Positions 4,525 to 5,532 of a stretch of DNA of 10,497 nucleotides are shown here, one piece after another (the stretch's first letter is position 1; the number at the start of each line of letters is the position of its first letter). Made by a program: the position numbers and the translations under genes. Origin of the DNA: a virus; the IMG/VR virus record IMGVR_UViG_3300035698_031582. One strand, given 5' to 3'. The notes beneath the pieces are model-generated. The model saw only the letters and a list, made by a program, of their open reading frames with translations. It had not been told where the DNA came from and did not search any database.

Positions 4525-5532
4525 ATGAATTCTATAGATGTGTTTGAAGGTAGTGAGAATGAGTTTTTGAGTAATTTTTATTTGGCTGACGTTGTTTTTG
4601 AAGGGGTGGTGTATAAGTCGTCGGAACACGCATATCAAGCAGCAAAGAGTTTAGATATTAATGATAGAATATGGGTTGCGGAAGCTTCTACGGCGGCAGT
4701 ATCAAAAAAACGTGGTCGTGAAATAAAAATGAGAGAAGATTGGGAAAATGTTAAGATTGGTGTTATGGAAAGGATTGTGAAAAATAAATTTACTTCTAAC
4801 AAGGAACTTAGAGATAAACTTTTGGCTACGCATAGTGTAGAGCTTATTGAAGGTAATTGGTGGAATGATACGTTTTGGGGGGTATGTAGAGGTAAAGGAC
4901 AAAATCAACTTGGTAAAATTTTGATGCGAGTAAGAGATGGGTTATATAGAAATAAAGATAAATCTTTGGTTATTAGTGTTACTGGGCATAGGCCGAAATA
5001 TTTTGGGACGTATGATGAAACAGATAAACGTATTGTATTAGTTAAAACAGCTATTCGTGAGTTTTTAGAAGAAAAAAATGTTAAAGAGCTTATATCTGGT
5101 ATGGCTATGGGTGTCGATATATGGAGTGCGGAGATAGCTATAGATTTAGGAATACCGTTTGTAGCGGCTATTCCTTTTGTAGGGCAAGATAAAAGATGGG
5201 TAAGTATGGCGCGTGATAGGTATAAAAGTATTGTTGAGAGAGCATCAAAGATATATGTTTTGAATAAATCGTTTGAACCTTTTGATTATGATAAATTCTC
5301 CAAGATATATATTGAAAAAAAGAGTTTTGAAGAAATTAGACTTTGTATGTTACAGAGGAATATGTGGATGGTTGATAATGCTGATGAGGTCATGGCTGTT
5401 TGGAGTGGTGATCGTGGTGGGACTGGGCATTGTGTTAGGTACGCAAAAGGAAATAGGGTTTCTGGTGGGTTTAAGAACAACAAACCGAAGAAAGTATATA
5501 ATTTATGGAAAGATGAGATGATTGAAGGTTAA
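4525..5532 (+). CDS. two-domain fusion: N-terminal NADAR (YbiA/DUF1768-like) domain plus C-terminal SLOG-superfamily YpsA/DUF1273-like domain
   Basis: N-terminal residues 1-140 match the E. coli YbiA pattern: EFLSNFY (FSNFA), SEHAYQAAK (SEHYFQAQK), R..I, KKRGREIKMREDWENVK (GRDRSKPLRKNWESVK), KF......LR.KLLAT, LIEG...D.FWG, RGKGQNQLGKILMRVR (GKGKNRLGYLLMELR). C-terminal residues ~146-335 match B. subtilis YpsA: VTGHRPKYFG (ITGYKPFELG), LVKTAIREFLEE (IKKAIKNRL), ISGMAMGVDIWSAEIAIDLG (ISGQLGVELWAAEAAYDL), AAIPFVGQDKRW (AVITPFYEQEKNW). ATG 4525 directly follows the upstream TGA (TGAATG). Confidence 0.75.
   Translation: MNSIDVFEGSENEFLSNFYLADVVFEGVVYKSSEHAYQAAKSLDINDRIWVAEASTAAVSKKRGREIKMREDWENVKIGVMERIVKNKFTSNKELRDKLLATHSVELIEGNWWNDTFWGVCRGKGQNQLGKILMRVRDGLYRNKDKSLVISVTGHRPKYFGTYDETDKRIVLVKTAIREFLEEKNVKELISGMAMGVDIWSAEIAIDLGIPFVAAIPFVGQDKRWVSMARDRYKSIVERASKIYVLNKSFEPFDYDKFSKIYIEKKSFEEIRLCMLQRNMWMVDNADEVMAVWSGDRGGTGHCVRYAKGNRVSGGFKNNKPKKVYNLWKDEMIEG

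Follow-up and report, generated by a model that had tools for sequence, protein, structure and literature searches.

A viral fusion of NADAR and YoqJ-like SLOG domains: architecture, relatives and candidate functions

NADAR domains and SLOG domains of the YpsA type are among the commonest domains related to NAD and ADP-ribose in large phages, and the locus studied here raises the question of what the two do when they are made as a single protein. IMG/VR virus record IMGVR_UViG_3300035698_031582 is a stretch of 10,497 nucleotides, which was analysed as a whole and is called the window in the following. At positions 4525..5532 on its + strand, the list of open reading frames (ORFs) gives a gene of 335 codons plus a stop that encodes a NADAR-SLOG fusion protein, and the ATG of this gene abuts the TGA of the upstream ORF. 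Together with its relatives, the fusion offers a convenient single-polypeptide handle on the function of the phage YoqJ-like SLOG domains.

Architecture of the fusion protein

A preliminary description of the gene had proposed a NADAR/YbiA domain in the N-terminal 140 residues followed by a YpsA domain, and both calls, together with the boundary between them, were borne out by profile searches. Pfam NADAR (PF08719) matches residues 11-140 (E=3.6e-26; 92.8 bits against a gathering cut-off of 35.1), and the NCBIfam equivalog-domain model of YbiA-type N-glycosidases (TIGR02464) gives 83.1 bits, above its cut-off of 73.7. In the second half, Pfam YpsA (PF06908) matches residues 151-260 (E=2.5e-15; 57.3 bits against a gathering cut-off of 27.7), and a custom profile made from YoqJ-like SLOGs that stand alone extends over residues 146-328 (E=4.5e-63). 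These domain profile scores lie far beyond chance. The closest solved structures by sequence are Escherichia coli YbiA (2b3w, 1.3e-18), Bacillus subtilis YpsA (2nx2, 5.1e-10) and P. nicotianae NADAR (8bau, 1.5e-8), and the AlphaFold2 model of the protein has a predicted local distance difference test score (pLDDT) of 95 and a predicted template modelling score (pTM) of 0.74. Profiles, solved-structure matches and model concur on a NADAR half of about residues 1-145 and a SLOG half of about residues 146-328. Judged from the alignments, every catalytic or pocket residue examined is intact. Because both domains are supported and the NADAR catalytic residues are in place, the protein stands as the fusion that had been proposed.

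The NADAR half (residues 1-145; 4525..4959, + strand) has the fold of YbiA, with a five-helix core flanked by small beta sheets, and it is a 'naked' core without N-terminal extension. The motif by which the preliminary description recognised the family was found as S33-E34-H35-A36-Y37-Q38, within the longer stretch S-E34-H-A-Y-Q-A-A-K41 (4624..4647, + strand). In the alignment, E34 and K41 are the counterparts of E43 and K50 of the P. nicotianae enzyme (PnNADAR) and of E88 and K95 of the E. coli C7 NADAR. A second segment, E109-G-N-W-W-N-D115-T-F-W118 (4849..4878, + strand), comprises the last strand and the following loop as defined by alignment to YbiA and PnNADAR; its E109, D115 and W118 align with E125, D130 and W133 of PnNADAR, and E109 corresponds to the Glu in 'LVEH' of YbiA and 'LYEA' of PnNADAR. 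The aligned residues touch the distal ribose or pyrophosphate of ADP-ribose or are needed for hydrolysis of guanine-linked ADP-ribose; in particular, the Glu at the site equivalent to E34 touches the distal ribose, and the Lys at the site equivalent to K41 touches the phosphate and the adenine (PMC11543638). We compared these columns in 273 NADAR domains, 49 of them fused and 224 single-domain. The E34 column is Glu in 272 of the 273 and the K41 column is Lys in 265, while E109 is kept in 265 and D115 in all 273, so that the catalytic columns are nearly invariant in fused and single-domain NADARs alike.

The last-strand Glu marks the YbiA subfamily, this position being Asp in the DarT1-linked NADARs (BC4488/DarG1) and His in T4 gp30.3 (PMC11125620). 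On the grounds of E109 and of the TIGR02464 score above cut-off, we assign the NADAR half to the YbiA subfamily. Two other assignments were rejected. An antitoxin of the DarG1 type (BC4488) was judged by a catalytic Asp lying two positions ahead of the aligned Glu, by an extension at the N-terminus that binds single-stranded DNA and by an adjacent DarT1 gene, and a NADAR of the T4 AdfN/gp30.3 type by a His, where the window has Glu, at the subfamily-defining position. Compared with the NADAR of phage OSYSP (Markadamsvirinae), the domain shows 47.6% identity.

The SLOG half (residues 146-335; 4960..5529, + strand) is a Rossmannoid domain of the YpsA/YoqJ type, whose fold is nearest to that of YpsA. 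An insert some 27 residues long (246-272) is the reason why the Pfam YpsA match ends at residue 260, and the domain also has a basic tail. Its loop-1 signature T153-G-H155-R156 (4981..4992, + strand) is invariant in every sequence aligning there. The loop reads TGHRP, with H155, in the window, whereas B. subtilis YpsA has TGYKP with Tyr at this position, where the YpsA family expects an aromatic residue; in the phage YoqJ-like set the His is invariant. The helix-2 motif G192-M-A-M-G196-V-D198 (5098..5118, + strand), identified by alignment to 2nx2, contains the GxD/E signature, and G196-V-D198 is the counterpart of G53-V-E55 of YpsA, in columns that are invariant wherever aligned. In YpsA, the G53A and E55Q substitutions abolish function, and the GxD/E of helix 2 is a predicted ligand site (PMC6459960). 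W225 is likewise invariant wherever aligned, in fused and stand-alone SLOGs alike, and the C-terminal pocket elements R278-N279...D284 and G298-G299-T300 (5356..5424, + strand) are near-invariant in 86 SLOG domains.

Several narrower classes were considered for this half and rejected. Membership of the clade of YpsA proper does not hold, as no gpsB is present, the nearest relatives are phage YoqJ-like proteins, and the only NCBIfam match (NF010181, PRK13660; residues 149-241) reaches 43.6 bits against a cut-off of 165. A LOG phosphoribohydrolase would have PGGxGTxxE, and the window reads GGTGHC, with no Glu three residues after the Thr. DprA was set aside on a PF02481 score of 18.1 bits against a cut-off of 29.6 and on a model devoid of SAM/DML1 domains. 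Finally, a cyclic ADP-ribose (cADPR)-sensing SLOG of the ThsA type, known from Thoeris, was dismissed for lack of close similarity and of a fusion to SIR2, TIR or transmembrane effectors.

Origin and recurrence of the fusion

At the fusion junction (residues 138-150, DGLYRNKDKSLVI; 4936..4974, + strand), the last NADAR helix leads almost straight into the first SLOG strand, and the model has a helix at 128-145 followed by a strand at 148-154. The same point was compared in four related metagenomic contigs (L001-L004). In L002, an ATGA there combines the start of the SLOG gene with the stop of the NADAR gene, and in L003 and L004 separate NADAR and SLOG genes overlap by 38 nucleotides, while in the window and in L001 (protein P0001, 48% identical) the junction is read through in frame. 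The fusion is thus an in-frame joining of two overlapping neighbour genes, and the split versions in the relatives indicate that it derived from two translationally coupled neighbours. That an error of sequencing or assembly in a short overlap merged two genes, as might be thought from the overlapping genes kept at exactly this junction in L002-L004 and from a probable homopolymer frameshift elsewhere in the window (a G5 run at 8654-8658), is very improbable and was rejected because two genomes as diverged as the window and the separate contig L001 share the identical in-frame fusion; moreover, the junction contains no homopolymer, its helix-to-strand passage is modelled with high confidence, and dozens of unrelated proteins are fused as well.

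To see how widespread this pairing is, 1.84 billion representative proteins were searched exhaustively with HMMER and two word-indexed searches were made besides, which together yielded 292 proteins. Both domains are present in 48 of them, in the order NADAR-SLOG (27 proteins), in the order SLOG-NADAR (19 proteins) or with the NADAR inserted in SLOG loop 1 (2 proteins). Nine of the 48 match just the last third of the custom SLOG profile, and their SLOG is probably of another family, for instance PF10686. Judging by these sequences, NADAR and SLOG are joined independently elsewhere too, beyond the lineage of the window. The preliminary description had not recognised the fusion as a characterised architecture, and this holds; as an architecture, though, it is not new, since Iyer, Burroughs, Anantharaman and Aravind already listed viral YpsA-clade SLOGs fused or linked to NADAR and Macro in a computational study of 2022 (PMC9503650, section 3.4.4, Fig. 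5h), and a 2021 survey of jumbo phages makes much the same SLOG/NADAR description (PMC7824862).

The topologies are varied. In P0006 (454 residues) and P0009 (382 residues), the NADAR lies inside the first SLOG loop, with SLOG strand 1 and TGHRPDKLGGYG before it and the remaining SLOG after it, a topology that would set the NADAR site beside the SLOG ligand loop. P0223, a polyvalent-type giant of 2,682 residues, has a SLOG-NADAR pair at its C-terminus, and P0156 (671 residues) has a NADAR followed by two tandem SLOG domains. A natural fusion, split sister versions and an insertion variant together constitute strong genetic evidence that both halves act on one substrate, and the value of the system is as a clean test case for the function of phage YoqJ-type SLOGs, provided by nature in fused, split and inserted form.

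In a tblastn search of 50,697 phage records, no record held at least 80% of the fusion protein in one place, and the fusion is therefore absent from the cultured phages in that collection. As separate genes, the domains are common in phages, NADAR being found in 625 phage records and SLOG in 275, and in cultured phages the stand-alone SLOG or NADAR genes adjoin helicase, SbcC or SbcD. In the L024 locus of Bacillus phage SPbetaL3, some 2.5 kb separate a YoqJ-like SLOG (769-1443) from a NADAR (4001-4438) encoded on the same strand. The two are in an early region, and the known anti-Gabija gene Gad1 is only a few kb away; this arrangement would be consistent with an anti-defence region. Two further IMG/VR contigs gave tblastn matches at 2347-3045 (L005) and 2001-2660 (L007) that reach query residues 229 and 216, respectively. 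In both, the profiles show a NADAR ORF only, and the additional match is possibly a frameshifted or divergent SLOG start.

Candidate substrates and functions

The NADARs assayed in the studies consulted, including E. coli YbiA and phage proteins, hydrolyse guanine-linked ADP-ribose on DNA (PMC11125620), and the same linkage is hydrolysed by NADARs on RNA (PMC11833690). ADP-ribosylation of cytidine is also reversed by NADARs of the YbiA type (PMC12945103). In vivo, the phage NADARs AdfN-T4, AdfN-Bas32 (Markadamsvirinae) and AdfN-Bas60 neutralise DarTG1 (PMC11257639), and because of this a counter-defence role of the fusion is plausible by analogy. E. coli YbiA, which is without the single-stranded DNA-binding extension of DarG1, fails to rescue DarT1 toxicity in vivo (PMC11125620).

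We tentatively favour a mechanism in which the NADAR half would be a catalytic ADP-ribosyl-base glycohydrolase acting on phage nucleic acid and the SLOG half would provide recognition, either of ADP-ribose or a nucleotide or of a single strand. The NADAR half would cleave the linkage that joins the distal ribose of ADP-ribose to the nucleobase (guanine N2, possibly cytosine), so that ADP-ribose would be released and the base restored in single-stranded phage DNA or RNA. The SLOG pocket would hold the ADP-ribose/nucleotide moiety or the single strand bearing it, and would in this way give the 'naked' NADAR core the targeting that DarT1-linked NADARs get from their own N-terminal extension. The phage would thereby be shielded from host immunity based on ADP-ribosyltransferases, whether DarT1-like or other base-modifying enzymes. 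What we infer is the substrate, how the two halves share the work and the part played against host defence; the mechanism is preferred because of the NADAR biochemistry, the helicase, SbcC and SbcD neighbours in cultured phages and a naked YbiA core that plausibly needs a targeting partner. If the substrate is indeed ADP-ribosylated nucleic acid, the fusion would explain the in-vivo specificity of 'naked' YbiA-type NADARs.

A number of points weigh against this mechanism. Iyer et al. argue from genomic context that phage NADAR and SLOG proteins mostly target soluble ADP-ribose derivatives rather than macromolecular adducts (PMC9503650), and Johannesman et al. view YbiA-like NADARs as largely housekeeping. 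The NCBIfam model passed by the NADAR half is named for a riboflavin-intermediate N-glycosidase, and the immediate neighbours of the gene are RNA-centred (a CCA-adding enzyme and RlaP) and not DNA repair genes; a DarT-like gene was not found. On the side of the SLOG half, the charge is just mildly basic (isoelectric point of about 9.0-9.2), which is not decisive for a DNA-binding SLOG, and T-G-H-R, GxD, R-N and G-G-T look at least as much like a small-molecule site as like a DNA-binding surface. Our search of the literature turned up no experiments on YoqJ/YpsA SLOGs of phages or on the NADAR-SLOG fusion.

The main rival is the degradation of a soluble signal or toxin, which is possible although we consider it rather unlikely. 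Here, the SLOG would capture a small molecule derived from ADP-ribose and the NADAR would cut the other N-glycosidic ribosyl linkage. The ligands proposed are cADPR isomers, N7-cADPR, His-ADPR, ADPr-1''P and ADPr>P, and the SLOG may itself cut the adenine-ribose bond; together, the halves would dismantle Thoeris/TIR-type signals or NAD-derived toxins. Such a role has been predicted for viral combinations of SLOG with NADAR or Macro (PMC9503650, PMC7824862), and glycosidase-type degradation of a signal by phages has a precedent in RyDEP (PMC13232231). Moreover, the invariant loop-1 residues His155 and Arg156 and Asp198 are compatible with a catalytic pocket, the two pockets would come to lie next to each other in P0006 and P0009, where the NADAR occupies the ligand-binding loop of the SLOG, and an NAD synthase gene lies near the NADAR/SLOG pair in the syntenic contig L002. 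However, the ring of 2'cADPR and 3'cADPR is closed through an O-glycosidic bond between riboses, a linkage that no NADAR is known to cleave, and according to the RyDEP preprint RyDEP was the first enzyme known to degrade 2'/3'cADPR (PMC13232231). The LOG motif is also absent from the SLOG half, and in the studies consulted the positive biochemistry of NADARs all concerns base-linked ADP-ribose, except for the riboflavin-intermediate N-glycosidase activity of YbiA (PMC11125620, PMC11833690, PMC12945103). A soluble substrate would add a new enzyme class to the phage evasion of TIR/Thoeris immunity.

A more elaborate form of such signal degradation, in which the two halves would build a single composite active centre, is doubtful. 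The SLOG would itself be a glycosidase through His155/Arg156 and Asp198 and, with the NADAR, would cut both ribosyl linkages of immune messengers derived from ADP-ribose, such as cADPR isomers, N7-cADPR and His-ADPR. If true, anti-Thoeris/TIR counter-defence would gain a new class of enzyme that differs both from RyDEP and from the sponges Tad1 and Tad2.

Also doubtful is a function in RNA repair, in which the fusion would assist its neighbours by stripping ADP-ribose from damaged tRNA or RNA or by clearing the ADP-ribose by-products of end healing. The neighbours concerned are all on the + strand. Positions 1..2244 encode an enzyme of the CCA-adding/poly(A)-polymerase family with an HD domain (PolyA_pol_RNAbd, a weak HD match, and phrog_2244 with 5.5e-21, a family annotated in PHROG as tRNA nucleotidyltransferase); it is cut by the start of the window, its frame being open to base 1, and its homologue in L001 has 880 residues with a PolyA_pol (head) and HD domains. 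Directly downstream of the fusion gene, 5561..6550 encode an RlaP-type (RNA-repair-associated) Pol-beta nucleotidyltransferase (PF10127, 1.6e-22; phrog_388, 4.3e-64), in an order kept in L001-L004, and Pfam defines RlaP (PF10127) as a nucleotidyltransferase of RNA-repair pathways. RlaP is followed by a homologue of aspartate 1-decarboxylase (PanD) at 6558..6923 (PF02261, 6.9e-41; TIGR00223, 124.2 bits against a cut-off of 106), which keeps the G24-S25 self-cleavage site (YEGSITI), as judged by eye. In all syntenic relatives PanD comes right after RlaP (L001 12821-13189, L002 6989-7348, L003 4198-4575, and also L004).

Across L001-L004, the order is CCA/HD enzyme, three small conserved ORFs, NADAR/SLOG, RlaP, PanD and two more conserved ORFs, with no single contig carrying every element of the block; the order from the CCA/HD enzyme to PanD is common to the window, L001 and L002, and its last three members are also found in the shorter L003 and L004. 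The presence of a CCA enzyme and RlaP suggests a tRNA/RNA-repair block, in line with the reversal of guanosine ADP-ribosylation on RNA by NADARs (PMC11833690), with the contextual ties of NADAR to RNA-repair systems (PMC9503650, section 3.4.3) and with the unrelated phage 4MG, where ClpP, the tRNA nucleotidyltransferase (CCA enzyme) and RlaP are grouped within about 8 kb. We nevertheless gave this function less weight because the synteny is bound to one lineage and is not reproduced in unrelated phages: L001-L004 and the window are a single viral lineage and thus not independent evidence, and in 4MG and in the huge phage LR745208 the 8-10 kb around RlaP are free of NADAR and SLOG. In addition, no gene for an RNA ligase, PNK, KptA or 2H protein was seen in the window or the related loci.

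The last functional alternative, a housekeeping role with no direct part in immunity, is quite unlikely. The NADAR half would be a YbiA-like N-glycosidase for riboflavin-pathway or ribosylamine intermediates, and the SLOG half a LOG-like nucleotide hydrolase or binder. The protein does pass TIGR02464, named 'riboflavin biosynthesis intermediates N-glycosidase', E109 assigns the domain to the YbiA subfamily, many of the matches carry a 'ribA/ribD-fused' annotation, and a bona fide metabolic gene, PanD, stands in the same block. On the other hand, neither the window nor the related loci contain riboflavin genes, the catalytic Glu of LOG is missing from the SLOG half, and YbiA-type NADARs also remove ADP-ribose from G and C (PMC11125620, PMC12945103). 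The repeated fusions to SLOG or Macro and the polyvalent-type P0223 are typical of conflict systems.

Neighbouring genes and comparison with known systems

Other features of the window concern its origin and the composition of the block. A small ORF of 55 residues at 2821-2988 (+ strand) scores 27.9 bits with RHH_10 (cut-off 27); this ribbon-helix-helix protein could be a transcriptional regulator within the block. In L002, the RlaP gene (4954-6984) encodes 676 residues, about double the length in the window, and a glutamine-dependent NAD synthase (CN_hydrolase and NAD_synthase) is encoded at 10044-11747, about 6 kb downstream of the NADAR/SLOG pair.

Two vault-like ORFs on the + strand (7520-8731 and 8523-10256) overlap, and the frame changes at the G5 run 8654-8658; either the homopolymer was misread in sequencing or the frameshift is programmed. 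Removal of one G gives a single protein of 911 residues with a Major Vault Protein (MVP) repeat (Vault_3), an MVP shoulder domain (E=1.4e-26) and then a long helical tail. Among phages it is matched solely by three records of uncultured huge phages of 462-735 kb (37-42% identity). No description of a vault-protein-like gene in huge phages was found in the literature searched, and this gene may be more novel than the NADAR-SLOG fusion. Like the vault-like protein, the CCA/HD enzyme has its best or only phage matches in uncultured huge phages of 462-735 kb, together with Lak megaphages. PHROG families match three of the window proteins, a near-identity search with the whole-window DNA gave no near match among deposited phages, and no structural or packaging genes were found in the 10,497 nucleotides. 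All sizeable ORFs are on the + strand, the GC content is about 29-38%, and the GC skew is strongly positive in every 500-nucleotide segment (0.28-0.61). A huge-phage-like origin of the window is likely.

The fusion can be compared with several known systems. DprA and ShosA, which are SLOG nucleic-acid binders, and the SLOG of ThsA, a 3'cADPR sensor, share 8-20% identity with the window SLOG, which differs from them in having no SAM/DML1, PRTase-partner, SIR2 or TIR modules. B. subtilis YpsA (2nx2) and SPbeta YoqJ belong to the same type of SLOG; however, YpsA comes from Firmicutes and has ties to gpsB and to inhibition of cell division, and the window SLOG has the insert 246-272. E. coli YbiA (2b3w) is a stand-alone, housekeeping and LexA-regulated protein, whereas the window domain is fused to a SLOG in a phage context. 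The AdfN proteins of phages (T4 gp30.3, Bas32, Bas60) and the DarG1 antitoxins resemble the window protein as ADP-ribosylglycohydrolases of the NADAR superfamily, and AdfN is, in addition, phage-encoded and a demonstrated counter-defence. Similar in design are the architectures of the 2022 study and of the jumbo-phage survey, in which the same superfamilies occur in one polypeptide or in adjacent genes of large phages with a predicted counter-defence role on ADP-ribose derivatives. Those reports are contextual predictions, to which the window adds a new lineage and a transition from split to fused genes within that one lineage.

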